Shown here: positions 1 to 42,437 of the stretch, piece after piece
Layout: every line of letters starts with the position of its first letter
How positions within the stretch are numbered: the first letter of the stretch is position 1
Source: Candidatus Micrarchaeia archaeon
GTDB taxonomy: Archaea; Micrarchaeota; Micrarchaeia; Burarchaeales; JACRGF01
Length of the DNA: 64,000 bases
NCBI GenBank assembly: GCA_038870455.1
Contig: JAWCPB010000001.1
Coordinates: forward strand, 3,734 to 67,733
Direction of reading: 5' to 3'
Position numbers and translations under genes: made by a program
The notes under the pieces: generated by a model
What the model was told of the DNA's origin: nothing
What the model saw: only the letters and a program-made list of their open reading frames with translations
The model's database searches: none

Positions 1-387
1 CAGAATGAAGAACTCGCCCGTGAGCGAGACAACGCCCCTTGAAATGTGCGTCGCGAGAGTCCTCGCGCCCCGCCTCTGTCTTTTGTCGTTGTCCGCAAGC
101 AGGCTGAGCGCCGCATGAAGATGCACGAAAGGCTTTCCCTCCTTCAGCGAAACGTTTCCGTGCGCGGCGAGCTCAACCGGCCCCCTGATGGTTTCGGTTT
201 TTGGGTTGAGCCTTTCCGTGCTTGCGGCCGTGATGAGCTCGGCTTCCTTGAGCGCGCCGATTCCCCAAACCGCTCCGGAGCGGATGCCGTGCACGGCGCA
301 CGCCCGGGCGAGCCCTTCGACGAGCTCTTCCCCGGGCTCGAACCTGACGGCGATTAACCTGCCCGTCTTCAGCTTCCTTGACTCCAA
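1..387 (-). CDS. PPC/DUF296-domain protein, N-terminal part (gene runs off window start)
   Basis: Manual minus-strand translation in the ilvH frame is open from about 387 to position 1. It reads ...GRLIAVRFEPGEELVEGLARACAVHGIRSGAVWGIGALKEAELI...PVELAAHGNVSLKEGKPFVHLHAALSLLADND... This matches the DUF296/PPC pattern (GIGAL... then HLH motif). There is no ATG; a TTG at 385-387 is the putative start. It is absent from the ORF track because it is edge-truncated with a non-ATG start. Confidence 0.5.
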   Translation of the reverse strand, partial: MESRKLKTGRLIAVRFEPGEELVEGLARACAVHGIRSGAVWGIGALKEAELITAASTERLNPKTETIRGPVELAAHGNVSLKEGKPFVHLHAALSLLADNDKRQRRGARTLATHISRGVVSLTGEFFIL

Positions 388-17993: not shown

Positions 17994-18248
17994 ATGTACG
18001 GGCAGACAATCAAAATCTGTGCGGATGCCGCTGAACGCGTTTTCAAGAAACTATGGAAGAGCGCGCCCCGGCAGGCTCGCGTCGTCCTGTCCGCGTGGCT
18101 GGACAGGATAGAGCGCCTGAAAGAATGCATTCCGGAAGCCGTAATGCCGAAGTACGACGGGTTTGAAGTGCGTGCGCGCATGGGGCGCGCACTGCCCGCG
18201 AAAGACTTCGCACGCATTCCGCCCTTGCTCGAGCCTTTTGGCGGCTAA
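17994..18248 (+). CDS. hypothetical protein (weak)
   Basis: In-frame ATG inside the GTG-started ORF 17691-18248. No recognisable domain. Convergent 4-nt overlap with ftsZ. Confidence 0.25.
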   Translation: MYGQTIKICADAAERVFKKLWKSAPRQARVVLSAWLDRIERLKECIPEAVMPKYDGFEVRARMGRALPAKDFARIPPLLEPFGG

Positions 18249-19318
18249 ATGTAGTTGATGTCCTCAAGGCCCAGCACGAGCTTCGCGTCCTGCTGCCTCT
18301 CGAGCGGCTTTCCGAGAATCTGCGGCGATGTTATGCCGGTCATTATCGCGGTGACGACGACCTGGTCCTCGAGCTCCGGCGACAGCCTCGCCCCCCAGAT
18401 GACATTGGCGTTCTCGTCGAAAGCCTCGGTCAGCTTCTCCCCTATCGTTGTCGCTTCGCCGAGAGTCAGCGTGGGCGAGCCGGCTATGTGAATGAGCGCG
18501 CCCTTGGCCCCCGTGTAATCCACGTCGAGAAGCGGGTTGGTGAGCGTGCTCTTGACGGCCTTCTCCACCTTGTCGGTTCCCTTTCCCTCCCCGACCGCGA
18601 TCATGGCCACGCCCGCGTTGTTCATGATCGCCTTTACATCCGCGAAGTCGATGTTCACGAGGCTCGGCAGCGTGATGGTGTCGCTTATTCCCTTGACGGC
18701 CTTGGCGACGATCTCGTCCGCGATCTGGAAGGCCTGGTTCATGGGCAGGTTCGGCACGTAGCTGACGAGGCGGTTGTTGTCTATGATGACCACCGTGTCG
18801 CAGATTTTCTTGAGCTGGTCTATTCCCCAGTAGGCCTTTTCTATCCTCGCCCTCTCGAGGCTGAACGGAAAGGTCACCATGGCCACGACAATCGCTCCCT
18901 GTTCCTTCGCCACTTCAGCGATGACCGGTCCGGCGCCCGTGCCCGTTCCCCCGCCCATTCCCGCGCTGAGGAACACGAGCTCGCTGCCAGCCAGCACTTC
19001 CCTCAGACTGTCCCTGCTCGCTTCCGCACACTTCTGCGCTACTTCGGGGAATCCGCCGGCTCCCAGCCCGCGCGTGATGGACTGGCCGATGAGCACTCTC
19101 CTGCTCGCCTCGACAATACGCAGGTGCGTGGCGTCCGTGTTTATCGCAACCGTGTCCGCGCTGCGTATGCCCATTTTCGTGAGGCGGTTTACCGTGTTGC
19201 AACCCGCCCCTCCCACGCCAACCACAGCAATTCTTATCCTGTCGGACGAGGTTGAGGCCTCGGGCTGGGGCTGCCCGCTTCCAAGAACCGAGTTAATCAA
19301 ACTCTCCACTGCCACCAC
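18245..19318 (-). CDS. ftsZ: cell division GTPase FtsZ (paralog A)
   Basis: Tubulin signature GGGTGTG, AVVGVGGAGCN, N-terminal GTPase and C-terminal domains. 357 aa. Confidence 0.95.
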   Translation of the reverse strand: MVAVESLINSVLGSGQPQPEASTSSDRIRIAVVGVGGAGCNTVNRLTKMGIRSADTVAINTDATHLRIVEASRRVLIGQSITRGLGAGGFPEVAQKCAEASRDSLREVLAGSELVFLSAGMGGGTGTGAGPVIAEVAKEQGAIVVAMVTFPFSLERARIEKAYWGIDQLKKICDTVVIIDNNRLVSYVPNLPMNQAFQIADEIVAKAVKGISDTITLPSLVNIDFADVKAIMNNAGVAMIAVGEGKGTDKVEKAVKSTLTNPLLDVDYTGAKGALIHIAGSPTLTLGEATTIGEKLTEAFDENANVIWGARLSPELEDQVVVTAIMTGITSPQILGKPLERQQDAKLVLGLEDINYI

Positions 19319-19378: not shown

Positions 19379-20449
19379 TCACCCGATTATCTCAATGTCG
19401 CCGTACGCCACTTCCTTTGGCTTGTCCTCGAACGGCTTGCCGAGCACGCTCGCGCCCTTCACGCCCGTGACTATGGCGACTATCTCTATCTTCCCGTCAT
19501 AGCCTGGTATGAGGCGCGCTCCCCACTTGACGTTCGCCTTGGGATCCATTCTCTCAGTGATTATCTCGCCTGCCTTTATCGCGTCGCCGAGCGTGAGGTC
19601 GCTTCCCCCGCTTATGTGGATGATCGCCCCGCTCGCACCCTCGAAATCAACGTCAAGCAGGCGGTTCTTAAGCACTCCCTCCGAGGCTCCGGCCACCTTG
19701 TCGGTTCCCTTTCCCTCCCCGACCGCGATGAATCCGACTCCCCCTCCGCCCATGATCGCCCTCACGTCGGCGAAGTCGATGTTGATGAGGCTCGGCTGGG
19801 TGATTGTCCAGACCAAGCCGCCGATGGCCTTGGCGAGAATCTCGTCGGCCACCGAGAAAGCGTCGTTCATGGGCAGGTTGGGCACAAGCTGCACCAGCCT
19901 GTTGTTGTCGAGCACTATGCACGAATCCACCACTTTCCTGAGATTGGTTATTCCCTCGTCGGCCTTGACTCTCCTCGCCCTCTCGAGGCTGAACGGGTAA
20001 GTCACCATGGCCACGACAATCGCTCCCTGTTCCTTGGCGATCTGGGCGACGATCGGTGCCGCGCCCGTGCCCGTTCCCCCGCCCATTCCCGCGCACACAA
20101 ACACGAGGTGTGCATTGGAAAGCTCTTTCTCCAAAAGGTGCCTGTCGACCTCGGCCGCCTTCGCCCCGGTTTCGGGATAGCCCCCGGCTCCCAGCCCGCG
20201 CGTGATGGACTGGCCGATGAGCAACTTCTTGGCCGCCTCATTCACCACGCTCAGGTGCTGCCTGTCCGTATTTATGGCCAACAGCTCGCACCCTTTCACG
20301 CCCGCCCTCACTAGCCGGTTGATGGTGTTGTTTCCAGCACCGCCCACGCCGGCGACCACTATCTTTATGCTCTCGGAGCCAAAGTTTTCCTGAGCTGGCC
20401 CCTGCTCTCCCATAACGCTTTTTATCAAACTCTCCATACTGATCGCCAC
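19379..20449 (-). CDS. ftsZ: cell division GTPase FtsZ (paralog B)
   Basis: GGGTGTGAAP, VAGVGGAGNN. 356 aa. About 55% identical to paralog A by eye. TATA TATTTAAATA at 20468-77. Confidence 0.95.
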   Translation of the reverse strand: MAISMESLIKSVMGEQGPAQENFGSESIKIVVAGVGGAGNNTINRLVRAGVKGCELLAINTDRQHLSVVNEAAKKLLIGQSITRGLGAGGYPETGAKAAEVDRHLLEKELSNAHLVFVCAGMGGGTGTGAAPIVAQIAKEQGAIVVAMVTYPFSLERARRVKADEGITNLRKVVDSCIVLDNNRLVQLVPNLPMNDAFSVADEILAKAIGGLVWTITQPSLINIDFADVRAIMGGGGVGFIAVGEGKGTDKVAGASEGVLKNRLLDVDFEGASGAIIHISGGSDLTLGDAIKAGEIITERMDPKANVKWGARLIPGYDGKIEIVAIVTGVKGASVLGKPFEDKPKEVAYGDIEIIG

Positions 20450-20546: not shown

Positions 20547-20906
20547 ATGGCAGCGGAAAAAAATCCTGCGAAAAAATCTTCCGGAAAAATTTCTGAGAAA
20601 GACGTGCTCGGCGCGCTGAAGGCAGTTATCGACCCCGAGATAGGCATTGACATCGTGGATCTGGGCCTCGTGTACGAAATTAAGATAGACGCGGAAAACA
20701 GCGTGCATGTGAAGATGACTCTCACCACTCCCTTCTGCCCGCTGGGACCCATGATTCTCAACAACGCAGAGCGCGCCGTGCAGGGAATCAAGGGCGTGAA
20801 GAGCGCGAAAGTCGAGCTCGTGTTCGAGCCGCCTTGGACTCCGGACAGAATGAGCACGGAAGCAAAAAAATCGCTTGGCTTCACGCAGCCCGCGCAGACC
20901 CCTTAA
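20547..20906 (+). CDS. DUF59/MIP18-family Fe-S cluster assembly protein (SufT-like)
   Basis: Conserved DPEIGIDIVDLGLVY...TTPFCP motif. ATG at 20547 with TATAAAAA ~23 nt upstream. The ORF-track TTG start is 21 nt further up. Confidence 0.8.
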   Translation: MAAEKNPAKKSSGKISEKDVLGALKAVIDPEIGIDIVDLGLVYEIKIDAENSVHVKMTLTTPFCPLGPMILNNAERAVQGIKGVKSAKVELVFEPPWTPDRMSTEAKKSLGFTQPAQTP

Positions 20907-22213
20907 GTCACTCCAATCTTCGCCATCGCGTTTCTCGGGTTCTCGTAGTAGGCCTGCGTGAATTCGCTGAGCTGCTTTATCTCGCGGATGCCCGCCCTGG
21001 CGAGCGCGCGCAGCACCTTCACGCGCAGCGCAAGCTCGTCCATGACTTCCTTGGGCGAAATGCCCGCCGCGGACGCCAGGCGGTCCCTGTAAATCACGCT
21101 GGGATGTACATTCACCATGCTGCCCGTGTGCGGGTCGAAGGAGCACAGGTCGCTGAGGAGAACTTTCTTCTCAATCCCCCCCGTCTCGGTCACCTGCCCG
21201 ACCACTCGCCTCAGCCTGCCATTCACCCAATAGTGCCGCGTGACGATGAAAACATCGATGAGCGGAATGACCTCGGTCGGGACGCTCATGGGAACGTTTT
21301 CAAGGCGCATGACGGCCTCCCTCGCGCTGTTGGCGTGCAGCGTGCCCATGCAGATTTTTCCTATGTTCATGGCGGTCATGAGGTCGTTGGCCTCGTTTCC
21401 CCGCACTTCGCCGACGATTATCCTGTTTGGGTGCATGCGCATGCTGTTTTTGACGAGGTCCTGCATGGTCAGCTCCTCGGTCGTCTCGAGCCGAGCGGTG
21501 TTCTCGTTCGCCTCGGTGTTCAGCTCGAGCGTGTCCTCGATGACCACGATCCTCTCGTTGGCGGGAAAGAAGGAAAACAGGGCGTTGAGCATCGTCGTCT
21601 TGCCAGAGCCGGGCATTCCCGCGATGAGTATGTTGGCCGGCTTTATGCGCAGCCCGTCCGCGTACAGCCAGAACTGCGCGGCCAGCTCAACGCTCATGGT
21701 GTTGTTTTCGACCAGGTCGATGAGCGAGAGGGGCCTCTTGTTGAACTTCCTGATTGTAATCTGCGGCCCGAAGGGCGAGGCTATGACGTTCGCCCTGCTT
21801 CCCTCCGGCAGGTGGAAGTTGTTTATGTCGTTCAGCCTGTCTTTTCCTGAGAGCACGAGCAGGCGCTTTACAAACAGGTTGAGCTGTTCGAGTGTTCTGA
21901 ATTTCCTGTCGGTCTTGACCATGCCTTCTTTCGTGGAGAACGTGTAGATGGGCTTGAGGCCGTTTATCATTATGTCCTCAATCTCCTCCCTTCTCATCAG
22001 GTCGTCGAGCTCCCCGTAGCTCAGCACGTTCCGGATGAGCGCGTTCTTCTTCTCCTCGCTGATTTTTCCATAAACTTCCCTGACGGCCTCGCCGACGATT
22101 CTCTCCTGCTCCTCCCTCGTCTGCACGAAGGAAAGCCTTCCCACGAGCTTTTCGAGCAGCCTCTCTTCCTTCTCCTCTTCCTCGGTTTTGCTTGTTTCAA
22201 TCTCGAGCTTCAT
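20903..22213 (-). CDS. GspE/VirB11/FlaI-family secretion ATPase (type II/IV secretion system protein E-like)
   Basis: Walker A IAGMPGSGKTTMLNAL. Asp box ERIVVIEDTLEL, Walker B and His box region (RIIVGEVRG, GTLHAN). 436 aa, shorter than archaellum FlaI. 22 nt downstream of the last membrane paralog on the same strand. Confidence 0.88.
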   Translation of the reverse strand: MKLEIETSKTEEEEKEERLLEKLVGRLSFVQTREEQERIVGEAVREVYGKISEEKKNALIRNVLSYGELDDLMRREEIEDIMINGLKPIYTFSTKEGMVKTDRKFRTLEQLNLFVKRLLVLSGKDRLNDINNFHLPEGSRANVIASPFGPQITIRKFNKRPLSLIDLVENNTMSVELAAQFWLYADGLRIKPANILIAGMPGSGKTTMLNALFSFFPANERIVVIEDTLELNTEANENTARLETTEELTMQDLVKNSMRMHPNRIIVGEVRGNEANDLMTAMNIGKICMGTLHANSAREAVMRLENVPMSVPTEVIPLIDVFIVTRHYWVNGRLRRVVGQVTETGGIEKKVLLSDLCSFDPHTGSMVNVHPSVIYRDRLASAAGISPKEVMDELALRVKVLRALARAGIREIKQLSEFTQAYYENPRNAMAKIGVT

Positions 22214-22234
22214 GCGACTCTCCTCGCGTGCAGT

Positions 22235-23263
22235 CTATATTAATCTAATCAGCCCCTGGGCGATCTCGGCGACGTTCGCGCCCAGCAGGTCGGATAGCTG
22301 CTTCACCGCAGTGAATGTTACGGTCAGCGCCATGAGTGGGTATATGTAGGCTTCCATGAACATGAAGGGGATGAGCCTGCCCACAGTGGTAAGGTAGGCT
22401 ATTATTCCAGTGTTTTTTACCTTCCATATAAAACTCAGCTGCGCGATGCCTTCCTGCGTTGCACACTGCTCCCTCAGCGCCTCCACATTGTACTCCACGC
22501 AGCTCAGCAGGTCGTGCTGGGCCGCCACCGATAATATGAGCGCATAGCTGAAGGGATACACCAGATACATGCCGATGGCCAGCCCCATGAGGAAGGCGCC
22601 CGCCCCCCTTGTGTAAGGCAGCACGCGCAGCACAACGCCGAGGGGCAGGAATATCGTAAACATGGTGTCCGCGACAAAGTTGAGAAGTTGCCTCTGGAAA
22701 TAGTTAGCGATGAGCAACCACGTCGAAAGCTGGGCTATCTGATGGGCAATGTTGGAAGGATAGGAGAAGGGCCAGCCCGTGACGGTGTGCACGCCATAGC
22801 TCGACAGCGTCACACTCGCCATTGTATCCACGACCAGCGCAATGCGCAGCGCCGTGACATAATAACGCCTGAGGCAGTCCAGCGTGCTGTTGAGATAAAA
22901 GTGGGTGAGGCTGAACGGATTGTCGGGTTGGATGACTCCCGGGGGTATGACCGACAACACTGGGTTATTGACAGCCAGCTCGCGCGTAGTGTTTGCCACG
23001 CCGGTGGAGATGAGGCCGGTGAAGGCGATGAGGCCGAACACGAGCATGGCGCTGGCCATCGCCTGCAGGAATTCACTCCGCGCCCACTTTTTTGCTTCGG
23101 GCAGGTCAAAGATGACTGAGACCATGTAGGCGAGCGCCACAAGAAATATGGATGTGAGCACAGCCAGCGCGGCGGCCTGCTGCCACACCAGCCCGGCCCC
23201 AGTCGTCCAGGCCGTCGTGACCGCAGCCTGCGTTGCCTGCCCGAAATCCGCCTGCAACATCAT
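22235..23263 (-). CDS. paralogous polytopic membrane protein P1 (unknown family)
   Basis: Multiple TM helices. Shared motifs WARSEFLQ, FLPLGVVLRVLPYTRGAGAFLMGLAIGMYLVYP, and C-terminal LGANVAEIAQGLIRLI. Confidence 0.7.
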   Translation of the reverse strand: MMLQADFGQATQAAVTTAWTTGAGLVWQQAAALAVLTSIFLVALAYMVSVIFDLPEAKKWARSEFLQAMASAMLVFGLIAFTGLISTGVANTTRELAVNNPVLSVIPPGVIQPDNPFSLTHFYLNSTLDCLRRYYVTALRIALVVDTMASVTLSSYGVHTVTGWPFSYPSNIAHQIAQLSTWLLIANYFQRQLLNFVADTMFTIFLPLGVVLRVLPYTRGAGAFLMGLAIGMYLVYPFSYALILSVAAQHDLLSCVEYNVEALREQCATQEGIAQLSFIWKVKNTGIIAYLTTVGRLIPFMFMEAYIYPLMALTVTFTAVKQLSDLLGANVAEIAQGLIRLI

Positions 23264-24678
23264 ATCATCCTCGTGAGGTTGGACACATCCACCTCCTCCC
23301 CAAAGAACCGCGAGAGGTCGCGCGCGATGGTTACAAGCAGGATGAAATTAAAAGCCGGCAGCAGAATGGCCCCAATGAGAATATAAGAGGCCACCCGGAT
23401 AAGCCCAAAGATCGCGTATGTGCCGCCCACCAGCGCCAGCAGCGTGCCGCCCAGCGCGCCCTTGAGCAAAGCCATTCCACCCAGCCTGCCTATCGCCGTC
23501 ATCGATGTCAGCACGGGCGCCAGGTAGGCTACAAGGACTGCCCATACCGTATGCCCAATAATGGCGAGCATTCCCAGCGCGTCCTCTTCGCTCACCGACC
23601 AAGCAGACCGAGGCACCTTGCAGGACGTGCACACGCCGCCCTCACATTCTCCTGAGAAACAATCGCTGCCCGCGTCACATGCATCGCCAGGATAGCCGAG
23701 CTCAAGACATCTGTTCGGCTGGTTTGGGTCGAACCTTCCAGAACAGCACTCCTGCGCCGTGCTGGCTTCTCCCGCAAAAATACATGGGGGGCAACTCCCA
23801 TCTGCATCGCATGTCAGGCCACCACAGCACTCGGTCGTCGAGTAGGGCCTGCACCTGTACTGGGAGGAGAGGGCGCCCATCACGTCATTTGTGGCATCGG
23901 CAATCGCCAGCATGTTTATTCCGAGCAGGATTGGATAGAACACGAACAGCGCCACGGCAATACCCATGAGCGCGCCACCGAATCCGCGCGTGAAGCTGAA
24001 GCACCTCAGCACAACACCCACGGGCAGCACGATGTTGAACATGGATACGAGGATGAACTTGAGTATCTCGGCCTGCACGAGGTTGGTTATCCAGGCGATT
24101 GTAAAGGACTGCAGCATGAGGTTGAGCCCGCTCTCGAGCGCCGAGAGCCCGGCCATGGGCTGGACGCTGACGCCATATCCGCCGGGCTGCATGCCGCTCG
24201 CATAGCTCGTGGCGATTGCCACGCGCCACTGCAGCACAAAGGCGTGCAACCATCCAGTTATTATTTTTTCATTCAGCCACCTCACATACTCAAAGGCATA
24301 GTCATACAGGTTCGGCGTTGTGCCGGCGGGCATGCCGACGAGGTTTGGGTCGAATCCGAAAAGCGCCGGAAAGCTCGGGCTGCACAGCACGCCCACGGCC
24401 AGCACGAGGTTGGCCACGATGACCAGGCTCGCCGCCGTTTGGTAAAACTCGTTCTTCGCCCACGTCGCCGCGCCCGCGATGCCCAGCACGGTTGCTCCCA
24501 TGTACGCGAGCACAAGGATGAAGAAGGAGAGCAGCGCGCCCAGCGTGGCCCAGCCGGCCCACGAGCCCCAGCTCGCCGTTATGCCGCACGCGTACGCGGC
24601 GCTCGTTGAGATGGGTGGGGATATGCTCACACACCCCGCCAGCGCGAATGCGCCCAGCACAACAAACATCCTGTTCAT
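23260..24678 (-). CDS. paralogous polytopic membrane protein P2 with Cys-rich extracytoplasmic insert
   Basis: Lipobox-like LAGC signal. WAKNEFYQ. VLPVGVVLRCFSFTRGFGGALMGIAVALFVFYP. A ~90-aa insert with 20 Cys (CCGGLTCDADGSCPPC...). C-terminal FGEEVDVSNLTRMI. 4-nt overlap with P1. Confidence 0.7.
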   Translation of the reverse strand: MNRMFVVLGAFALAGCVSISPPISTSAAYACGITASWGSWAGWATLGALLSFFILVLAYMGATVLGIAGAATWAKNEFYQTAASLVIVANLVLAVGVLCSPSFPALFGFDPNLVGMPAGTTPNLYDYAFEYVRWLNEKIITGWLHAFVLQWRVAIATSYASGMQPGGYGVSVQPMAGLSALESGLNLMLQSFTIAWITNLVQAEILKFILVSMFNIVLPVGVVLRCFSFTRGFGGALMGIAVALFVFYPILLGINMLAIADATNDVMGALSSQYRCRPYSTTECCGGLTCDADGSCPPCIFAGEASTAQECCSGRFDPNQPNRCLELGYPGDACDAGSDCFSGECEGGVCTSCKVPRSAWSVSEEDALGMLAIIGHTVWAVLVAYLAPVLTSMTAIGRLGGMALLKGALGGTLLALVGGTYAIFGLIRVASYILIGAILLPAFNFILLVTIARDLSRFFGEEVDVSNLTRMI

Positions 24679-24682
24679 GTCA

Positions 24683-25885
24683 TCACACTATCTTGGAGAG
24701 CGCTTGCAGATTGACGTCGGCTCCCAAAATATTTGCCAGTCCTCTTATCGCCGTGAAGGTGATGAGCAGCTGGAGGGCAGGCATGACAAATCCCAGCACG
24801 ACTGTCATGTAAACAAAATAGCCAATGAGCATGATGAGAATGACGGTCAGCGCAGGAATCAGCTTTCCCGTGGGCAGCAGGAAGAGCAGAAAGAACACCT
24901 CCCCAAGATAGACAAAACCGCTCGGATTGAGCAGTGTGGACACGGCGTTCACCAGATGCTCGCGCATTGGCTCAGTGATTCTCTCAGCCACATCGAGTGC
25001 GGTGCAGCTCGGCGGAAGCGGCGCGCCGAAGCAGTACGCCCTTGCCATGTGCGCCTTCAGAAATTCGAACGACATGATGTATGTGAGCGGCCACACCACA
25101 TAGAACCCCACGGCGATGGCGATGAGCGCGCCGCCCGCGCTGCGCGTGAATGGGAACGTCCGCAAAAGAATCCCGACGGGAAGAAAGATCGGCATCATGG
25201 TGTCACGGACAAACTTGAGAAAAACCTGCTGCCCTATGATGCTGGCCAGCGCGAGTCCCTGCCCATTAAGCACTATGGCGAGCGCATCCAGGATTGGGCG
25301 CAGCGCCACGCCCGGCTGTATGGTTATGCCCACACGCATGGGCGCGATGGAGACGGTCGAGGAGGCGAGCACCCCAAATGCTATGTTCATGCCGTTGAAA
25401 ATGATGTAAAATACTATCACTATCCTTTGCGCGATGGCGAGAAATTGCTCGGCAACCTGGAATGCATCGTTGGCGGATACGGTGAGGCCCGCCGAAACCC
25501 TCTCCAGGTACCATGGCAGGTAAAACAGCGGGACGAAAACCTGATCGATGAAGCTGATTATGACGAACATCGCGCCAACGAAAATCGCGGTGGCGACGAG
25601 CTGGTACAGCTCGTTCTTTGCCCATACAAGCAAGGAGGGCATGCCGAAGCCGAACGCCAGCATGAACATCACAGCGACAACAAAAGACGAGAGCAGCAGG
25701 GCGATCATCGTTGGGCCATACCAGTTCACTCTCGTCTCGCACGTTCCCGTCTCGGTGAGGTAGGTGCCCGGGCAGCATCCACCTGGCCCGGGCGGCGCCC
25801 CCGCGCCCGTGCACCGCTGTATCGTGCCGAGGCAGCCAGACAAGAGTATGAGCCCGACCAGCGCGAGCGCCCACGCCCTCATCAT
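24683..25885 (-). CDS. paralogous polytopic membrane protein P3
   Basis: LLSGC signal. WAKNELYQ. FLPVGILLRTFPFTRSAGGALIAIAVGFYVVWP. C-terminal LGADVNLQALSKIV. Confidence 0.7.
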   Translation of the reverse strand: MMRAWALALVGLILLSGCLGTIQRCTGAGAPPGPGGCCPGTYLTETGTCETRVNWYGPTMIALLLSSFVVAVMFMLAFGFGMPSLLVWAKNELYQLVATAIFVGAMFVIISFIDQVFVPLFYLPWYLERVSAGLTVSANDAFQVAEQFLAIAQRIVIVFYIIFNGMNIAFGVLASSTVSIAPMRVGITIQPGVALRPILDALAIVLNGQGLALASIIGQQVFLKFVRDTMMPIFLPVGILLRTFPFTRSAGGALIAIAVGFYVVWPLTYIMSFEFLKAHMARAYCFGAPLPPSCTALDVAERITEPMREHLVNAVSTLLNPSGFVYLGEVFFLLFLLPTGKLIPALTVILIMLIGYFVYMTVVLGFVMPALQLLITFTAIRGLANILGADVNLQALSKIV

Positions 25886-26955
25886 ATCAACCTCGTTAGC
25901 CCGGCGATCTCAATGTCGCCGCCGAGATTCTGCGAGAGTATCTTCACAAAAGATATCGTGGTGATGAGGCTCACAAACGGCACGAAGGTGGCATAGATAA
26001 GGATTTTGGCCGTTTTCTCAAACACGCCCTCGTCACCGATGAGCCAGCTTCCACCGGTGAGCGTGCCGGTAATGGCATCCCATAGCCCGAAGTTTTCGGG
26101 CTTGTGCGGCACAAGACTCTTGCCCAAACCCGTGCCTTGCGCGCTCGTGTATGCCTCCTCCAACGCGCTCGGGTCGATGATGAGCACGTATGTTTTGGCC
26201 GTGGTGGCGCCCACCACGGCGTGAGCCAGCAGATAGACAATGGGTAGCACGAAATAGACGCCTATGGCCACCGCCATGAGCAGTCCCCCGAGCCTTCGCG
26301 TCATGAAGAACGAGCGCAGCACAATGCCGAGCGCCAGTAGCGTCGGATACAGCGAGAACATCGTCAGATCGAAAAAGACCTCAACGGCCTTCATGACTAT
26401 CATGACCTTGGTGATGAGGTCAAACGTGGTGTTGAGGCTGTCGGTGATGACATGAAAACCTGCGAGCGGGGTGAACATGAAGTTGAGCCACGGTGCAACC
26501 AGCCCCTCCCAGCCCACGGACATCGATGCCAGCATGAGCAGCCATGAGTTCGTGCGCAGGATGAGTTTGTTCATCTCCCTCAGGTTGGAATACATCGCAG
26601 TCGTGTAGTTGCGGGCCAGCAGGATGTGGCATCCAGTTCCCGTGCAGCCCACATCGGCCGCCAGCGCGGCATCCAAGCTCGTCAGCAGCCCGACGAGCGC
26701 GGCCACGATGACGAGGCTGGCGATTGCCTGGTACAGCTCGTTCTTGCCCCACGTCTTGAGGTGAGCGATGTTGAAACCGAAGCCCACCGCATAGGCTAGT
26801 GCTGTCAGCATCAGCATGATGAACGCGAGCGTGAGCGCCTCGGCCCGCCAGTCCCACGGCGTGCCGCCCCACAGCGTGGTGATTGGCTTTCCCCCGAGCG
26901 TCACACAGCCCGACAGCAGGAGCAGGGCAAGCACGGCCACAAGCACTTTTTTCAT
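25882..26955 (-). CDS. paralogous polytopic membrane protein P4
   Basis: LLSGC signal. WGKNELYQ. LGIVLRSFFMTRRLGGLLMAVAIGVYFVLP. C-terminal LGGDIEIAGLTRLI. Confidence 0.7.
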   Translation of the reverse strand: MKKVLVAVLALLLLSGCVTLGGKPITTLWGGTPWDWRAEALTLAFIMLMLTALAYAVGFGFNIAHLKTWGKNELYQAIASLVIVAALVGLLTSLDAALAADVGCTGTGCHILLARNYTTAMYSNLREMNKLILRTNSWLLMLASMSVGWEGLVAPWLNFMFTPLAGFHVITDSLNTTFDLITKVMIVMKAVEVFFDLTMFSLYPTLLALGIVLRSFFMTRRLGGLLMAVAIGVYFVLPIVYLLAHAVVGATTAKTYVLIIDPSALEEAYTSAQGTGLGKSLVPHKPENFGLWDAITGTLTGGSWLIGDEGVFEKTAKILIYATFVPFVSLITTISFVKILSQNLGGDIEIAGLTRLI

Positions 26956-26959
26956 CGCA

Positions 26960-27898
26960 TCATCTACCCAGCTTGTGTATGATGACTTTTACGGTTGCCT
27001 TGATGAATGTAGTGGTGATCACCATGCTCAGCGCGGGCAGGAAGACCGCCTGGGGAATGACATGGCTGATGGTCAGAAACGCCTTGCACTGCCTGCGCGG
27101 ATCAAAATAGCTGAAAATCCCGAAACGGCTCACATCACCCGGGTTGGCAGGCGTGCCCGGATCGAGCGGCACGCTGCACAGCCCGAAGAGTCCCAGCTTT
27201 GCGCTCGGGTCGTTGATGTCGCTCCAGATCACATCGGCGACCATGGCGTTCATCACATAAGTGAGCGGAAACACCACGTAGAAGCCAAAGGCTGCTGCCA
27301 TGAGGAACGCGCCCGCATCCCTGGTGAAGGAGATGCCTCTCAGCAGAATGCCCGCGGGCAGCACGATTTGGAACATGGTGGCCTGGATGAACTGCAACAG
27401 CACCTGCTGCAACAGCAGGCTTGAGAGAAGGGGCCCGAGGATGTTCTCGAGCAAGTTGATGTTGTTGGCAAGTCCCTTTAGCCCGGCGAGCGGCGCATAG
27501 CTGAATCCCCACGCCGTGGGTCCTATCTGCACCGCGTACTGCCCGATGACATTCGCTTCGTACGCCAACGCAAACAGCTCCATCATGGTGGGCACGGCCT
27601 GCGTCCACACCAGCTCGGTGAGATACTTGTCCGCTATGTCAAACGGATTGCCTCCGGCGAGCTGCAGCGAGAGCTGGCAGGCCAGGCTCGAGAAAAACGC
27701 CGCGTTGGCCAGCAGGAAAAGCGTCAGAAGGACTTGGAAGAACTCCTCCTTCGCCCACGCCTGCCAGCCGGGCCTTGCAAACAGCGGGGCCACCATGTAC
27801 ACCCCGCCGACAAACATGAACACGATGAGCATGGCTACGGCAACGGTGTCGCCAATTCCCGGCAGGGGAGCGCAATACGAGAGAGTTGCGGCAGGCAT
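26960..27898 (-). CDS. paralogous polytopic membrane protein P5
   Basis: The start was reset to the internal ATG (MPAATLSY...), 2 nt after the P6 stop. WAKEEFFQ. VLPAGILLRGISFTRDAGAFLMAAAFGFYVVFP. The C-terminus is divergent. Confidence 0.65.
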   Translation of the reverse strand: MPAATLSYCAPLPGIGDTVAVAMLIVFMFVGGVYMVAPLFARPGWQAWAKEEFFQVLLTLFLLANAAFFSSLACQLSLQLAGGNPFDIADKYLTELVWTQAVPTMMELFALAYEANVIGQYAVQIGPTAWGFSYAPLAGLKGLANNINLLENILGPLLSSLLLQQVLLQFIQATMFQIVLPAGILLRGISFTRDAGAFLMAAAFGFYVVFPLTYVMNAMVADVIWSDINDPSAKLGLFGLCSVPLDPGTPANPGDVSRFGIFSYFDPRRQCKAFLTISHVIPQAVFLPALSMVITTTFIKATVKVIIHKLGR

Positions 27899-27900
27899 GC

Positions 27901-29588
27901 TCACACCAACTTGGTCATCCCAGCCAGCTGCGTCTCTCCACCGAGCGAGCCTGACAACGAGCGGAAGAATGTTATGACGATTATGATGTCGACTACGGTC
28001 AGCACAGTCACCACAAGCAGCTTTCTCACCACAATGGGCAGCGCCCACTCGTCTGGAACCAACCAGGTAAAGGTCGGATTATCGGTGAGGCCGGCGTTGG
28101 GGCACAGGGCCGGCACGCTGCCTTTGCACGATGAACATGGCTGCTGTGCCGTGTTGGCATCGCACGTGATGTAGTCATACGCAGCGTACACATAATACGT
28201 GGGCCAAAGGCTCTGGAAAGAGCCAGAGCCCACCGCCCCAAGTAGGCTAACCAGTGGCGAGCCCGCCACCACCCCAACGCCCGTGATGCCGGCGAAAAGC
28301 AGCTGCCCGCCCACCGATTTCCACACCTCTCCCGCCCGCTCGTACTCCCGCCTCAGCCAGCACATGACCTGATACCATTTGCACGCGGGCTTCACCGTGA
28401 CATTGAGGCTGGCCTCGGCCATGTCCTGGCAATAACCACGCGGGTCACACCCGCCGTAAGACGTGCCATCGGGCCTAACCACTACAGGGCATCCTTCGCT
28501 GCAGGGCGTGGCGTTTATCGTTGTCACCACAACCCCGTACTCAAAAAGACCCTCGCCCGGATTGCTCACGGGAAAGTTAACGGGCACGCCAGCGGCATAA
28601 GCCCCTTCACCGAGCCATACGAAATCCGTAGACGCGCCCTCCTTCCACTCTCTGTACCACACATCATAAGTGCCATTGGGCGCCTGGATGAGAAAAGTGA
28701 GGTTGAAATAGCCGGTCCCGCCGACAGTGCTGAGGGGCGAGAAAAAGGCAATCTTACCAATGCGTCCGAGGTCGCTTTCGACAATCCTCCACTCCGGCGG
28801 GATGTCGCCAGCCGCGCTGTACTGCGCCACAACATCTCTGTCATACTCATAGATGCCCTTATTGAGGGCGAGCGTGAGCGGAAACACGACATACCCCGAT
28901 ATGGCGAGCGCGATGATGGTCGAGCCAAGCTTTCGCGTCAGACTGAACGTCCTGAGTATCAGGCCGAATGGCAGGAAAAACGTGAAGAACTGCTCGTATA
29001 TAAACTCCAGCAGCGCTTGCTGGGCCATGAGATTGACGATGGTGAGCGCGGCGGCGTCGGCGATTTTTACAATCATCCCGTTCACCATCGTCAGCCCCAC
29101 CAGCGGGCTGATGCCCACGTTGGGCATCGTTGTGCCGATGGGAATCCCAAAAAGCTGCGGATAGAGCACGGTGCCCATTGTACCGAGCGTGCCTATGCCG
29201 GCATCGAGCGTCAGCAGGCGGGTATAAACGCGCGTCAGGTCGTTCAGCGTCTCGCTCAGATAAGCATAGCCGAGGCCGATGTGGCTGTAGCCACCCGTCA
29301 TGTCTGACACAATTGTGTTAAGCACGGTCAGCGAGGAGAAGACAAGGCCCACCATGAGCGCGCTCACCGCCGCTTCGGCGAGCTCGTTCTTTGCCCATGC
29401 CTGCAGCTCGGGCGAGCGAAGCAGCTCGGACAGCATGTACGCAATTGCCACGAACAGGAACGAGATGGCAACTGCCGTGAGGGCGATCGAAAACCAAAAC
29501 GCCTCGCCTCCCCACGTTGTCTGTATCGACGTTGTCACATTGAGCAGGAACTGCTCGGGCGGCGCGGTCGGGGAAGGCAGGGTCATCT
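27901..29588 (-). CDS. paralogous polytopic membrane protein P6 (largest; extra Cys-containing extracytoplasmic domain)
   Basis: The start was reset to the ATG at 29586 (MTLPSPTAPP...). The ORF-track N-terminal 207 aa overlap leuS on the other strand and follow the TATA box. WAKNELAE. FLPFGLILRTFSLTRKLGSTIIALAISGYVVFP. C-terminal LGGETQLAGMTKLV. Confidence 0.7.
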
Positions 29589-29613
29589 CTATCGAGGTTT
29601 TTACTTCTCCACG

Positions 29614-29624
29614 CTTTAAATAGG
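29614..29624. promoter_or_regulatory. bidirectional TATA-box promoter (membrane-paralog operon / leuS)
   Basis: CTTTAAATAGG lies ~29 nt upstream of the P6 ATG (29586, minus strand) and 22-29 nt upstream of the leuS GTG (29644, plus strand). Confidence 0.55.
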
Positions 29625-29643: not shown

Positions 29644-32430
29644 GTGGGGCAATCCATCGAGGAAAAATGGCAGAAAAGATGGGCCGAGGCCAGGCTGTTC
29701 GAGGCCGAGCCGCAGCCAGGCAGGAAAAAGTTTTACCTCACCGCGGCGTATCCCTACCCCAATTCTCCGCAGCACATCGGCCACGCCCGGACATACACGA
29801 CTACCGACGTTTATGCGCGGTTCAAGCGCGCCCAAGGATACAACGTGCTTTTTCCCATGGGCTTTCACGTCACGGGCACGCCCATCCTCGCAATGGCAAA
29901 GAGGCTCGCGGCCAGGGAAGAGGAGCTGCTGAGCCTTTTCGAAAAGGTTTTCGGCATCCCGAAAGAAATCTCGCTTTCCCTCGCCGAGCCCACCGCGCTC
30001 GTGGCCTTCTTCTCGCGCGAAATCGAGCAGGGCATGCGCGAGATGGGCTTTTCGATTGACTGGCGCAGGAAGTTCTACACCTATGACCCCGACTACAATG
30101 CATTCATTCAGTGGCAGTTCCGCAAGCTGAAGGAAAGAGGCTTCATCACCAAAGGCGCGCACCCCGTTCCCTGGTGCCCGCGCGACAACCAGGCCGTGGG
30201 AAGCCACGACACAAGGGGAGACATAGACCCTGAGCTCGGCGAATTCACGCTCATAAAGTTCGCCTTCGGCGACGCCTTCCTTCCCGCCGCCACCCTGCGC
30301 CCCGAGACGATTTACGGCGTGACCAGCATGTGGATAAATTCCGATGCCGACTATGTCAGGGCGCGCGTGGATGACGAGAACTGGATTGTCTCAAAGGAAG
30401 GGGCGGAGAAGCTGGCCGCCCAGGGAAGAAAAGTGGAGGTGCTCGCGCAGCTCAAGGGCTCCGATGTTAAAGGCGAGTGCATTAATCCCATCAACAGCCA
30501 GCCCGTGCCGATTTTCCCAGCTTCATTCGTCGATCCCTCGAACGCCACGGGCGTTGTCATGAGCGTGCCAGCCCACGCTCCATACGACTACTTAGCCCTC
30601 CGCGATTACCTCCGCACGGCTGGCCAGCTCTCCCGGCTCGAGGCCATGCTCGTTCCCGTGCTGAAGATAGAGGGCTATGGCAGCGCGCCGGCAAAGGAAA
30701 TCAGCGAGGCCATGGGCATAGCGAGCCAGAATGACCCCAAAGCCGAGGAGGCGACGAGGGAAATCTACAGGAAGGAGGCGCACACGGGGGTGATGGTCGC
30801 CGGAAAATACGCCGGCGAGCGCGTGCTCACCGCGAAGGAAAAAATAAAGGCCGACCTGCTGGGCGAGGGAAAGGCCTCGCTCCTTCACGAGATCATCAAC
30901 GGCCCCGTGTATTGCAGGTGCGGCGCCCGTTGCATCGTAAAGAGCATCAAAGATCAGTGGTTCATTGACTACGGCAATGCCGCCTGGAAACGCGCCGCGC
31001 TGGAGTGCCTGCAGGGCATGCGTGTCATCCCACAGAAAACCATTCCGGAGTACGAATACACCATCGGCTGGCTTAAGGAGAAAGCCTGCACGAGAGCCCA
31101 GGGACTGGGCACCCGCTTTCCATTCGACGAGCGCCAGATGATTGAGGCGCTCAGCGACTCGACCATCTACATGGCATACTACACGGTGGTTCACATACTG
31201 CGCCGGGAGGAAATCCCCTTGTCCGAAGCCGCGTTCGACTACATCTTCCTAGGGAGGGGGAAGGGCTCTCCCGCGCTGGACGCCGCCAGGCGGGAGTTCC
31301 TCTACTGGTATCCCCTCGACTCGCGGCATTCGGCCACCGACCTCGTGCACAACCACCTGACGTTCTTCATTTTCAATCACACCGCGGTTTTCCCGCGCGA
31401 GCTATGGCCCAGGCAGATCGTCACAAACGGCTTTGTGCTCATGGAGGGAAGCAAGATGAGCAAGAGCCTTGGCAACATCCTTCCCCTGCGCCTTGCCATA
31501 AGAAAGTACGGCGCGGACGTCGTGCGCTTCAGCGTGGTCTCGGGCGCCGACCTGGCGCAGGATGCCGACTTCAACGAAACCCTTGCCGAGGCGATTTCCA
31601 CTCGCCTCAAGTACTTCGCTTCGCTGGCCGAAATCGCTGCCACCGCGAGTTCCCGCGAGCTCAACCACCTAGACCGATGGATGCTCTCCAGGCTCCACCG
31701 GAAAATACGCGACTACGAGAAGAACATGGAGGAACTGCGCTTCCGCGAGGTGGCCCAGGATGTCTTCTACAACCTGGCCAACGAGCTGCGCTGGTACGCC
31801 CGGCGCACCGGAAAGGCCAATGGCCGCGTGCTGCGCGAAGTGCTCGAGAACTGGATTCTCCTCATCGCTCCATTCATGCCCCACTTTGCCGAGGAGGCAT
31901 GGGAGCGGCTTGGGAAAAAACAGTTTGTCAAGGAAGCGGCGTTCGTCTCGGCAGCCTCCCTGCCCGAGCCCGACGAAACAAAAATAAGCCCGCTGGACGA
32001 GCTGGGCGAGGAAATAGTCATCAGCACGCGCGGGGACATCGAAAACATTCAGAAAATCACTGGGAAGAAGGCAAAGCGCATTTTCCTGTATGTCGCAGCC
32101 GACTGGAAACGCGCCCTCTATCGTCTGTTGTTTGAAGAAAAGAAGTTCGAGCCCGCCATTAAGCGGGCAATGGCCGACGCGGTCTTAAGGCAACACGCGA
32201 AAGACGCGTCCAGGGTGCTGGCGGCCCTTGCGAAAAACATCGGCGGGCTCTCGCCCGTCTGCCCGAGCCAGGCCGAGGAGGAGGCTGTGCTGCGCGAGGC
32301 CATTCCCTTTCTCTCCGGAGAGTTCGGCGGAGCCGAAGTGGCTGTCGCGAGGGAAGAGGACGCGCCCGCCCCGCACGCGGCAAAAGCCGAGGGGACTATG
32401 CCTTTAAAACCGAGCATATTCATTGAATAA
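29644..32430 (+). CDS. leuS: leucyl-tRNA synthetase, archaeal type
   Basis: 928 aa. HIGH (PQHIGHARTYT) and KMSKS (GSKMSKSLGN) motifs with a CP1 editing insert. GTG start. Confidence 0.95.
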   Translation: MGQSIEEKWQKRWAEARLFEAEPQPGRKKFYLTAAYPYPNSPQHIGHARTYTTTDVYARFKRAQGYNVLFPMGFHVTGTPILAMAKRLAAREEELLSLFEKVFGIPKEISLSLAEPTALVAFFSREIEQGMREMGFSIDWRRKFYTYDPDYNAFIQWQFRKLKERGFITKGAHPVPWCPRDNQAVGSHDTRGDIDPELGEFTLIKFAFGDAFLPAATLRPETIYGVTSMWINSDADYVRARVDDENWIVSKEGAEKLAAQGRKVEVLAQLKGSDVKGECINPINSQPVPIFPASFVDPSNATGVVMSVPAHAPYDYLALRDYLRTAGQLSRLEAMLVPVLKIEGYGSAPAKEISEAMGIASQNDPKAEEATREIYRKEAHTGVMVAGKYAGERVLTAKEKIKADLLGEGKASLLHEIINGPVYCRCGARCIVKSIKDQWFIDYGNAAWKRAALECLQGMRVIPQKTIPEYEYTIGWLKEKACTRAQGLGTRFPFDERQMIEALSDSTIYMAYYTVVHILRREEIPLSEAAFDYIFLGRGKGSPALDAARREFLYWYPLDSRHSATDLVHNHLTFFIFNHTAVFPRELWPRQIVTNGFVLMEGSKMSKSLGNILPLRLAIRKYGADVVRFSVVSGADLAQDADFNETLAEAISTRLKYFASLAEIAATASSRELNHLDRWMLSRLHRKIRDYEKNMEELRFREVAQDVFYNLANELRWYARRTGKANGRVLREVLENWILLIAPFMPHFAEEAWERLGKKQFVKEAAFVSAASLPEPDETKISPLDELGEEIVISTRGDIENIQKITGKKAKRIFLYVAADWKRALYRLLFEEKKFEPAIKRAMADAVLRQHAKDASRVLAALAKNIGGLSPVCPSQAEEEAVLREAIPFLSGEFGGAEVAVAREEDAPAPHAAKAEGTMPLKPSIFIE

Positions 32431-39973: not shown

Positions 39974-40413
39974 GCAACTCCACCATGTTTCAAAAAACTA
40001 TTAGATTTTTCTAATAATCTTTTTGCATTTTCAAAAGTAAGCTTCTCCAAAGCCTTTTTGAAAGGCAGCCACTCAAAACCAATATGCTCAAAAGAAAGCT
40101 TGACCTCCTTTTGTTTTGTCTCAGCGAGCTGGAAATAAACAGTCTTGGCAACCGTTTTTCCTTCTCTTCTAAAAAAATATTTGAGCTTCTCGCGAAAACC
40201 CGGAACAAATTCCACATCAGTTATTCCAGTTTCCTCCGCGATCTCCCTCCTCGCCGTCTCCTCTACGCTCTCGCCTTTTTCAATCTTCCCCTTTGGAAAA
40301 TCCCAATGCCCTTCTTCATAATGCAGGATGAGGTAGAGGATCTGCCCACCTTCTCTCCTGAAGACAATCGCGCCTGAAGAAAACTCGAGCGGCACGTTGC
40401 TCTTTTGATTCAT
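39970..40413 (-). CDS. NUDIX hydrolase
   Basis: Nudix box GKIEKGESVEETARREIAEETG. Markedly AT-rich relative to its surroundings. Confidence 0.85.
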   Translation of the reverse strand: MNQKSNVPLEFSSGAIVFRREGGQILYLILHYEEGHWDFPKGKIEKGESVEETARREIAEETGITDVEFVPGFREKLKYFFRREGKTVAKTVYFQLAETKQKEVKLSFEHIGFEWLPFKKALEKLTFENAKRLLEKSNSFLKHGGVA

Positions 40414-40568
40414 AACTTTTAAATTCCTGGATGTCCGCGCTGACAGAAAGTTAGGAAGCTTTTAACACCACTTCAGTAAACTCATTATCAAGTCTGGTTT
40501 TTTCAAAACTTCTTATGGTTCACTGCTACAGTGTTAAGCGGGTTTTATGGCACGTGGAAGCACGCTTA

Positions 40569-41855: not shown

Positions 41856-41870
41856 CCATGATTATAGTGC

Positions 41871-42437
41871 ATGAAGAACTTGCTCATAGTGCTGGCCGTG
41901 CTTCCGCTCGCCGGCGCTTCCGTGAGCGATGTGAAATTTTCGTTCATTGACAGCAGTGGAAACAAGGTTGATTTTTACCCGGCTGGTTATTCTGGAAAAG
42001 TTTCGGTCAGGGCTGAAATCAGCGACGCGGCGTATCCCGAGTGGGTGGCTGGCGAGGTGAGATATACCTTAAGGTGCGAACTCATTGACCAGAATGGAAC
42101 CAGGCTCAGGCTTCCGGAGGCGATGATTGGATGCATTGCCATCAGCGGGCCCGGTGTGTTGAAAAACTGCAGGAAGGAAGTCTCTTTCGAATTCAGGGCC
42201 GAATACGTGAAAGGCGGGAGCGTGGAATGCTTTCTTGACGAGCAAAAGGCTTTTTCGAGCACTATCCCGTTTGCGCAGTTTGTCTCCCAGCCGCCCGTAC
42301 AGCCTCCAGCACAGCCGGCCGTACAGCCTCCGGCTCAATATCAAACGCAGCAGGGACCGGTCTGCTGTGCTGGCATAGGCCTGCTACTCCTCGGGTTGTT
42401 TTTGCTTTGTTCCGGGGAGGTGGATTGTCCTTCCTAA
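41871..42437 (+). CDS. secreted protein with C-terminal hydrophobic anchor, hypothetical
   Basis: Signal peptide LPLAGAS, a PPVQPPAQPAVQPPAQ linker, and a C-terminal TM. ~54-nt convergent overlap with lpdA. Confidence 0.45.
   Translation: MKNLLIVLAVLPLAGASVSDVKFSFIDSSGNKVDFYPAGYSGKVSVRAEISDAAYPEWVAGEVRYTLRCELIDQNGTRLRLPEAMIGCIAISGPGVLKNCRKEVSFEFRAEYVKGGSVECFLDEQKAFSSTIPFAQFVSQPPVQPPAQPAVQPPAQYQTQQGPVCCAGIGLLLLGLFLLCSGEVDCPS

Follow-up and report, generated by a model that had tools for sequence, protein, structure and literature searches.

The six-gene block and its proteins

The window analysed here, a stretch of 64,000 nucleotides from contig JAWCPB010000001.1 of a Candidatus Micrarchaeia archaeon, carries on its minus strand a block of six tandem paralogous genes, P6 to P1 in the direction of transcription, which runs into the gene of a PF00437 ATPase (window sequence and gene calls). 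The six genes are old paralogs, each specific to its position, and encode membrane proteins of five helices that belong to a single uncharacterised family; the unit kept by evolution is the six-gene array, not the array together with the PF00437 ATPase. An earlier inspection of the bare DNA, here called the sequence-only reading, had described the same succession of membrane-protein genes and ATPase gene on one strand, which was confirmed by the identities, the five helices and the motifs given below. The genes and features of the block and its flanks are as follows:

27901-29586, minus strand: P6, array position 1, 561 aa, ATG at 29586
26960-27898, minus strand: P5, array position 2, 312 aa, ATG at 27898
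25882-26955, minus strand: P4, array position 3, 357 aa, lipobox LLSGC, canonical core
24683-25885, minus strand: P3, array position 4, 400 aa, lipobox
23260-24678, minus strand: P2, array position 5, 472 aa, lipobox
22235-23263, minus strand: P1, array position 6, 342 aa, minimal core without signal peptide
20903-22213, minus strand: PF00437 ATPase, last gene of the transcription unit, 436 aa
29614-29620, minus strand: TATA-like box TTTAAAG, read from the sequence, putative promoter
29644-32430, plus strand: LeuRS gene, divergent from the array
18245-19318 and 19379-20449, minus strand: two FtsZ genes, downstream of the ATPase gene

Neighbouring array genes either overlap by 4 nt or are 2 to 4 nt apart, as tight as previously noted, and two starts were corrected: that of P6 was moved from 29588 to the ATG at 29586, and that of P5 from a GTG at 28048 to the ATG at 27898. 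The TATA box seen earlier was recovered as TTTAAAG (29620-29614), approximately 30 nt 5' of the P6 ATG and within the 57-nt divergent spacer between P6 and LeuRS. At the other end of the array, P1 and the ATPase gene are separated by a 21-nt spacer containing a Shine-Dalgarno (SD)-like GGAGAG, and array and ATPase are probably co-transcribed. Downstream of the block lie a convergent FeS-assembly gene and the two FtsZ genes. The nearest public records are NCBI metagenome-assembled genomes (MAGs), in which proteins identical to P6 and the ATPase are encoded, and a sister MAG is 87-94% identical. Opposite the paralogs, a 505-aa open reading frame (ORF) at 24479-25996 (plus strand) is a shadow ORF and not a gene; long shadow ORFs of this kind are typical of the GC-rich sequence here and misled a naive longest-ORF gene caller.

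Pairwise identity among the paralogs is close to 25%, and P2 to P6 are each 24-28% identical to P1. The paralogs share the motifs W-[AG]-[KR]-x-E and L-P-x-G-x-x-L-R-x-F-x-x-T-R-x-x-G and a C-terminal LG-x-D...L-x-R-L-I, the conserved C-terminal peptide being LGGDVEIAGLTRLI. The motifs had been attributed to all six proteins, which held except for the C-terminal tail: P5 is the only paralog of the window without it, and the position-2 orthologs likewise always lack it. A lipobox, also ascribed to all six, is clear only in P2, P3 and P4, doubtful in P5 and missing from P1 and P6. A topology with five transmembrane (TM) helices per paralog was supported alike by hydropathy, lipoboxes, Cys-rich inserts and the positive-inside rule; in it, the N-terminus lies outside and TM1 leads through a short cytoplasmic loop with the W-A-K-N-E motif to TM2. 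An outer loop of 80-125 aa follows, then TM3, which ends with L-P-x-G-x-x-L-R, a short cytoplasmic loop with F-x-x-T-R-x-x-G-G, TM4, a variable outer insert, TM5 and a cytoplasmic tail, whose L-G-G-D-x-E-x-x-G-L-x-R-L-I stops exactly at the C-terminus. The WAKNE and FTR-GG loops, whose side of the membrane the sequence-only reading had proposed to settle by topology prediction, are thus cytoplasmic, short and positively charged. P6 has an extracytoplasmic insert of approximately 270 aa with 10 Cys between TM4 and TM5, matching the Cys-containing domain described before, whereas the 20-Cys insert claimed for P2 was revised to 18 Cys in the whole protein, 14 of them within its extracytoplasmic TM4-TM5 insert.

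An AlphaFold2 model of P4, based on a 105-sequence alignment (pLDDT 83, pTM 0.77), predicted an all-helical protein, apart from a small beta hairpin, whose helices, at 32-48 residues, are too long for the membrane and must protrude from it. The P6 model showed the same core, predicted with confidence, and an insert (residues 253-513) of low confidence. Across the 105 members of the family, G210, R214, R220 and P238 (P4 numbering) are invariant and E73, G223 and G345 nearly so, and all of these residues except P238 belong to the cytoplasmic loops or the tail. The outer loops were moderately more divergent than the core in the comparison with L001 (locus numbers with L denote the loci collected for this analysis). 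Strain-level hypervariability of these loops was considered and rejected: against a 94%-identical relative, the loops were about as conserved as the core.

When 1.84 billion cluster representatives were searched with the family profile (HMMER), 3,124 proteins were retrieved at E<=1e-3 and 755 at E<=1e-30, so the family comprises at least 3,124 clusters at 50% identity, and because the profile retrieves that many representatives, shared paralogy of the six genes is far beyond chance. Some members are 1,100-1,700 aa long. Those that bear a name are all annotated as 'hypothetical protein' and come from Micrarchaeota or 'Parvarchaeota'. Searching the six window proteins against Pfam and NCBIfam yielded nothing usable, the family profile found no match at E<=10 among PDB sequences, and a PDB fold search with the P4 model gave no match, none being PilC-like. 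T2SSF (PF00482) was matched neither by the six window proteins at E<=1 nor by any of the 105 members in Pfam, and eight members with giant inserts, searched together with giant proteins flanking some arrays, contained no Pfam domain. We found no description of the six-gene array of Micrarchaeota in the literature, and the six paralogs constitute an undescribed family of polytopic membrane proteins.

Conservation of the array and of its neighbours

Array loci were collected by scanning GTDB species representatives with an alignment of P4 orthologs as query, which returned 80 loci, and members were counted with the family hidden Markov model over 84 sequences, that is, 83 fetched loci and the window. 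Almost all loci came from Micrarchaeota MAGs, and the set included Bilamarchaeaceae, a 'Ca. Micrarchaeum' MAG, one Iainarchaeum and the complete genome of 'Ca. Fermentimicrarchaeum limneticum' (CP058998, L017). Exactly six co-directional members were present in 60 of the 84 sequences, the remaining 24 being shortened contigs or split ORFs. Gene order is also fixed, since the best match of a given position was the same position in 59-93% of between-locus comparisons; for window positions 1 to 6 this was the case in 38, 55, 59, 44, 51 and 57 of 59 loci, respectively. Position 3 is the one most often expanded, reaching 700-1,580 aa in many lineages and up to 1,582 aa. At least seven genomes among the 80 loci carry two arrays, among them the sister MAG of the window (L004 and L071).

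The ATPase, whose Walker A box had been noted before, is an intact member of PF00437, the GspE/FlaI/TadA/VirB11 superfamily: it matched Pfam T2SSE at 7e-36 (124 bits against a cut-off of 24.9), and its boxes can be read in the sequence as GMPGSGKTT (Walker A), RIVVIEDTLEL (Asp box), RIIVGEVRG (Walker B) and GTLHAN (His box). Its nearest solved relatives are AfGspE (2e-57), CpaF (5e-50) and FlaI (4e-39), and it scored below every NCBIfam equivalog cut-off (FlaI, 218 bits against 550; TadA, 163 against 373; VirB11, 127 against 250; TrbB, 121 against 305). It adjoins the array in 5 loci only, which form the clade of the window (the window itself, L001, L004, L008 and L085). In L008, at a contig end, the ATPase is 65% identical and the P4 ortholog only 33% identical to those of the window; in L085 the ATPase is 66% identical, and an IS605/OrfB (TnpB-like) transposase gene (6097-7338) is inserted between it and the array. 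In every other array locus that extends past the end of the array, the PF00437 ATPase is absent. A search for the combined synteny, which the sequence-only reading had suggested, hence traced the six-gene array through the phylum and the ATPase adjacency to these 5 loci, and its view of array and ATPase as one system was weakened on the second of its own refutation criteria.

Orthologs of the ATPase with 50-62% identity stand alone among housekeeping genes, often beside the gene of glucose-6-phosphate isomerase. These solitary contexts are the following:

L087/L088 (one shared context), L089, L090, L091, L092 and L094: archaeal
L093, 7001-8344: Omnitrophota MAG, approximately 50% identity, a bacterium without such arrays

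No T2SSF (PilC/FlaJ) gene was found in any of the 12 ATPase contexts examined. Solitary PF00437 ATPases of approximately 430-450 aa form a widespread group in Micrarchaeota and Omnitrophota bacteria, and our analysis thereby also flags a family without a known membrane partner. Functional coupling of the array and the PF00437 ATPase is uncertain, and we consider it doubtful rather than probable.

The commonest context of the array consists of a divergent LeuRS gene, the array and two FtsZ genes. Where flanking genes were called, at least 13 loci have LeuRS upstream and at least 12 have FtsZ downstream, mostly with both FtsZ paralogs called and on the strand of the array (LeuRS/FtsZ synteny: L005, L007, L012, L014-L016, L024, L030, L032, L036, L048, L052, L058, L061 and L068). 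This synteny is kept more widely than the adjacency of the ATPase, and in several loci array and FtsZ are separated by 300-500 nt. A divisome role deduced from the FtsZ adjacency was set aside, LeuRS adjacency being conserved as well, and so was an ABC-type permease, for which there is no linked ABC ATPase.

Arrays of a second type, not linked to LeuRS, have neighbours of their own. Giant proteins (1,000-1,950 aa) are encoded divergently and immediately upstream of such arrays in at least 17 loci (L071, 2347-6003, minus strand; L020, L027, L034, L038, L044-L047, L050, L055, L062, L065, L075 and L081-L083), L071 being the second array of the window's sister genome. Their conservation is confined to the TM-helix region and they contain no Pfam domain; those of L034 and L044 cross the membrane once, leaving a short N-terminal part outside and a huge part in the cytoplasm. 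Directly 3' of array position 6, seven loci (L038, L044, L045, L056, L062, L074 and L082) encode a secreted lipoprotein (1,300-1,690 aa) with many Cys residues and N-glycosylation sequons and likewise without a Pfam domain, which starts 3 nt or less from the end of the array in six of the seven, the called ORF overlapping the array end in L062. This giant lipoprotein is probably a surface component of the array system. A further protein of approximately 188 aa, in which a TM helix at the N-terminus precedes a PLD-like HKD domain (PLDc_2, 1.7e-24), adjoins the array on either strand in eight loci (downstream of the array in L006, L009, L011, L034, L046, L047, L055 and L075) and may be either a nuclease of the Nuc type or an enzyme acting on phospholipids.

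Elsewhere in the window, positions 40001-42000 form a low-GC island (GC 0.455 against approximately 0.59 in the rest), which may have been acquired horizontally; a 428-aa ORF (40569-41855, minus strand) and a 188-aa ORF (41871-42437, plus strand) in it gave no Pfam match.

Pilin and ATPase genes linked to related arrays

In L017 and eight further genome loci of the Fermentimicrarchaeum lineage, the array occupies the middle of an operon of 15 genes, whose junctions measure zero to a few nucleotides and whose order is two or three pilin genes, the six paralogs, two TM proteins of approximately 273 aa, a 512-aa ATPase and three small proteins. The operon pilins (approximately 118 aa) consist of a signal peptide and two hydrophobic helices with a basic loop, and matched TrbC/VirB2 (1e-4) and T4SS_pilin (2e-4) in Pfam, both below the cut-off; a profile of these VirB2-like pilins gave no real match to PDB sequences. 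The 512-aa ATPase matched AAA_10, DUF87 and P-loop_TraG in Pfam, CedD (5e-19), CedB (5e-18) and a VirB4-like family (3e-15) in NCBIfam, and HerA and VirB4 (4ag5, 2e-10) in the PDB. A metagenome scan seeded with this CedB/VirB4-like ATPase showed that an array always precedes relatives with 72% identity or more: all six metagenome loci that reach far enough upstream have five or six family genes before the ATPase, and the shorter contigs end within the array. L122, a distant contig whose ATPase relative is 32% identical, reduces the operon to a pilin (5e-8), a single full-length family member (4e-23), a TM protein and the ATPase. The pilin is also found within the array itself, since the position-2 paralog carries an N-terminal pilin fusion, with two tandem modules in L070 and one in L077 (domain E-values 3e-7, 2e-9 and 6.5e-10).

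ATPase relatives at 50-66% identity are part of another gene order, made up of a TM protein, the ATPase, a Zn-ribbon TM protein, a protein of approximately 250 aa and a two-TM protein of approximately 850 aa. This module occurs on diverse metagenome contigs (L113, L114, L117, L118 and L124; GC 0.26-0.55), and may represent a broader, uncharacterised archaeal membrane ATPase system. As a separate observation, the CedB/VirB4-like ATPase gene of L025 (15804-18947) contains an insertion of approximately 515 aa right after the Walker A lysine (GITGAGK/S...VFVHN/SYFVK, slashes marking the boundaries), whose boundaries are those of a P-loop intein; L100, L103 and L109 probably carry a similar insertion.

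The pilin also resembles the family more remotely. With hhalign, the pilin profile aligned to the TM1-loop-TM2 hairpin at P=2.7e-5 when the entire family was used, and at 7.7e-6 and 4.4e-5 when positions 1 and 2, respectively, were taken alone. Seven controls, namely TrwI, the alignment in reverse and five unrelated families of membrane proteins, gave P=0.1-0.5. Considered as a VirB6-like trait, the pilin-hairpin match ranged from P=2.7e-5 to 9.5e-5, a moderate significance, with hhalign probabilities of 59-84%. A relation between N-terminal hairpin and pilin has been described for CedA/CedA1 and VirB6/VirB2 (Beltran et al., PMC9905601).

When the 105 members were compared with NCBIfam, the only families matched by more than two of them were CedE, with 4 members and 1.2e-5 at best, and CedA, with 3 members and 1.6e-4 at best; at the level of the best CedE match, approximately 0.001 matches would be expected by chance over the 105 scans. 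CedE, a CedA paralog with five TM helices, is structurally homologous to VirB6 (PMC11868833). Among 20 members scanned singly against NCBIfam, there was just one weak colinear CedA match (L017, position 5), and none of the six window proteins matched CedA (NF041796) or CedE (NF053657) at E<=1.

Interpretation and comparison with known systems

We propose that the family supplies a domesticated surface apparatus of conjugative origin, similar to type IV secretion systems (T4SS) and Ced, with its VirB6/CedA/TedA-type membrane component, which has expanded into six paralogs; this is our best explanation, to which we give about an even chance. Because the six subunits are distinct and co-inherited, we infer that they would build a single hetero-oligomeric assembly, a platform or channel of the cytoplasmic membrane, in which the long helices and the variable, Cys-rich and partly lipid-anchored loops, facing outwards, would make up the base and the surface part. 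The W-A-K-x-E loop, the LR/TR/GG loop and the LGGD...RLI tail would offer a docking surface on the cytoplasmic side for a hexameric motor ATPase. Since the cytoplasmic motifs are conserved and the outer domains variable, the picture would be that of a platform docking a motor inside and presenting lineage-specific surfaces outside. In Fermentimicrarchaeum-type genomes, the motor would be the split CedB/CedD/VirB4-like ATPase and the platform would assemble the VirB2-like pilins of the operon, and in the clade of the window the PF00437 ATPase may act in a VirB11-like or alternative motor role. T4SS use both VirB4-class and PF00437-class (VirB11) ATPases, and both classes adjoin arrays, in different clades. 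The apparatus looks domesticated because its chromosomal context beside aminoacyl-tRNA synthetase genes is stable. A more specific version, in which the six subunits form a heterohexameric ring with one subunit per position, matching the six-fold symmetry of the motor, and serve DPANN archaea as a conduit for host attachment and exchange of macromolecules or DNA, the outer domains recognising the host, seems to us unlikely in its entirety.

Several results weigh against the proposed VirB6/CedA/TedA-type role. The likeness between pilin and family hairpin lies in hydrophobic helices and reaches hhalign probabilities of just 59-84%, and the CedA/CedE matches concern 7 of the 105 members and remain far below the cut-offs (330 bits for CedA). 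Comparison of the family with VirB6 of R388 gave hhalign probabilities below 1%, both with TrwI alone and with an alignment of 30 TrwI sequences, which was shallow, all its sequences being at least 50% identical to TrwI, and which leaves room for remote homology to VirB6. None of the 105 members matched TrbL/VirB6 (PF04610) in Pfam; together with the absence of T2SSF matches, this is in line with the sequence-only reading, which could match the motifs neither to FlaJ/PilC/TadC nor to VirB6/TrbL. As regards gene content, the window has neither a VirB2-like pilin nor a VirB4-like ATPase, the CedB-like module of L113-L118 and L124 has no family member within 10 kb upstream, and most arrays have no ATPase nearby, being flanked by LeuRS and FtsZ or by giant unknown proteins. 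Interaction among the six proteins is itself a prediction, from their co-inheritance. There is no Pfam or PDB match, and CedE and CedA, below their cut-offs, are the only recurring NCBIfam matches; the earlier suggestion of an undescribed membrane secretion or pilus-like system probably stands.

The adjoining ATPase invites a different explanation, in which the six paralogs are a novel platform that replaces PilC/FlaJ, and a FlaI/GspE-type ATPase drives the assembly of class III pilins encoded elsewhere. One such gene is indeed present in the window, at 61554-62132 (plus strand; N-terminus MARRVRKG, then QSAMEYLITYGWALLIMLAVL), 32 kb from the array; two had been reported, of which this one was confirmed (a longer spurious ORF overlaps it on the opposite strand). 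This type IV filament explanation is also favoured by the co-transcription of the ATPase, 21 nt downstream and with an SD-like site, by the persistence of the adjacency in a deep clade (L008, with P4 33% and ATPase 65% identical), by the ATPase's nearest relatives, AfGspE, CpaF and FlaI, and by the 12 ATPase contexts devoid of T2SSF genes, which leave its membrane partner unassigned. It is opposed by the absence of the ATPase from other arrays and the mostly solitary state of its orthologs, even in a bacterium without arrays, by the IS605 transposase that parts array and ATPase in L085, and by the paralogs themselves, which include no T2SSF match among the 105 members (Pfam) and no PilC-like fold. 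Moreover, no array locus contains a class III pilin, the linked and fused pilins being of the two-helix VirB2 type, and the analogy with ATPase-adjacent platforms of type IV filaments drawn by the sequence-only reading was not borne out. We consider this explanation improbable, more so than any other weighed here. Conversely, the ATPase might have nothing to do with the array and be a member of the solitary PF00437 family with a cytoplasmic or otherwise independent role, which landed between array and FtsZ in a single clade of Micrarchaeota. This is compatible with the reading preferred above and, to our judgement, comes close to an even bet. Its solitary orthologs, 50-62% identical, in archaeal loci and Omnitrophota, often by glucose-6-phosphate isomerase, point in this direction, as do the array-FtsZ gap of only 300-500 nt in related genomes and the tolerance of an insertion sequence between array and ATPase in L085; the tight 21-nt junction with its ribosome-binding site, the persistence of the adjacency over a fairly deep clade and the fact that no alternative partner of the ATPase has been identified argue the other way.

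It can also be asked whether the array belongs to secretion at all. As a lineage-specific envelope or cell-biology complex (an S-layer or surface anchor, a divisome scaffold or a transporter), it would have ATPase and pilin genes as merely incidental neighbours, brought into its operons by the compactness of the genomes. Its most widespread context, LeuRS-array-FtsZ-FtsZ with 300-500 nt to FtsZ in several loci, would suit such a complex, as would the giant proteins that flank second-type arrays (1,000-1,950 aa and single-pass, or 1,300-1,450 aa, secreted and rich in Cys and N-glycosylation sites) and the lack of any secretion-family match above curated thresholds. The FtsZ synteny is weak evidence, because LeuRS adjacency is equally conserved and clearly non-functional. 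Pilin fusions, the minimal operon of L122 and the tight junctions of the 15-gene operon of L017 can hardly be coincidence, and the only recurring family matches are CedE and CedA; we therefore rate an envelope complex of this kind as rather unlikely.

The ways in which DPANN archaea attach to their hosts and trade material with them have yet to be worked out, and most of the DPANN membrane proteome is unannotated. The array family is very large and runs through a whole phylum of tiny archaea that depend on hosts, with a rigid six-gene organisation and no matching Pfam family or solved structure. Were the VirB6/CedA/TedA-type reading true, domesticated T4SS of the Ced/Ted type would extend from Crenarchaea to DPANN, the array would be an archaeal counterpart of the expanded VirB6 sets in Rickettsiales, and the six subunits, their conserved cytoplasmic motifs and the C-terminal tail would be targets for study. 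A heterohexameric conduit, if true, would represent a new architecture of cell-to-cell transfer machine and give a molecular handle on DPANN-host interaction.

Among known systems, those of type IV filaments (GspF, PilC, TadB-TadC or FlaJ, with GspE/PilB/FlaI ATPases) share with the window's clade a gene for a polytopic protein directly upstream of that of a PF00437 ATPase. The family differs from their T2SSF platforms in lacking both the T2SSF domain and the cytoplasmic helical-bundle domains, in having no class III pilins at any locus and in a link to the ATPase that is not conserved.

VirB6, like the family, is polytopic and all-helical with long helices; in R388 there are seven of these, and five are hydrophobic (PMC9259494). 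It sits at the base of a VirB2 pilus beside VirB4 and VirB11-class ATPases, a place that the family is proposed to share. Rickettsiales carry tandem arrays of VirB6 paralogs, RvhB6a-e (PMC2653234), and in both these bacteria and the Micrarchaeota a tandem expansion of paralogs with large extensions occurs in an obligately host-associated organism. The RvhB6a-e array is the nearest analogy for the six-paralog expansion, and of the two parallels drawn by the sequence-only reading it is the one that fits best, given that related arrays lie between VirB2-like pilins and a CedB/VirB4-like ATPase. There are differences nonetheless: family and VirB6 show no sequence likeness (hhalign below 1%, no TrbL) and no PDB fold match, VirB6 of R388 is a homopentamer whereas the array implies six distinct subunits, and the archaeal envelope has a single membrane and no equivalents of VirB7-10.

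The Ced/Ted systems of Crenarchaea, which serve DNA exchange, consist of CedA/CedE or TedA (VirB6-like), CedA1 or TedC (a VirB2-like pilin) and CedB/CedD or TedB (a VirB4-like ATPase) (PMC9905601, PMC11868833). Like the array system they are chromosomal and domesticated, and like the related loci they combine a two-helix pilin, a polytopic membrane protein and an ATPase of the HerA/VirB4 class with TM and N-terminal-domain parts, the layout of L122 being that of Ted/Ced. CedE has five TM helices, as the family does, the N-terminal hairpin of the Ced membrane protein also resembles the pilin, and cedB of Sulfolobus is unlinked from cedA, as are the ATPase relatives at 50-66% identity from the array. 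Sequence likeness to Ced is, however, far below the family cut-offs, and the ATPase adjacent to the array in the window's clade is of the PF00437 type instead. Where Ced has one or two membrane proteins, the family has six paralogs in fixed order, often in two arrays per genome, with outer inserts of up to approximately 1,200 aa and lipoboxes. Within the family itself, the C-terminal tail is strictly conserved and the W-A-K-x-E motif is present.

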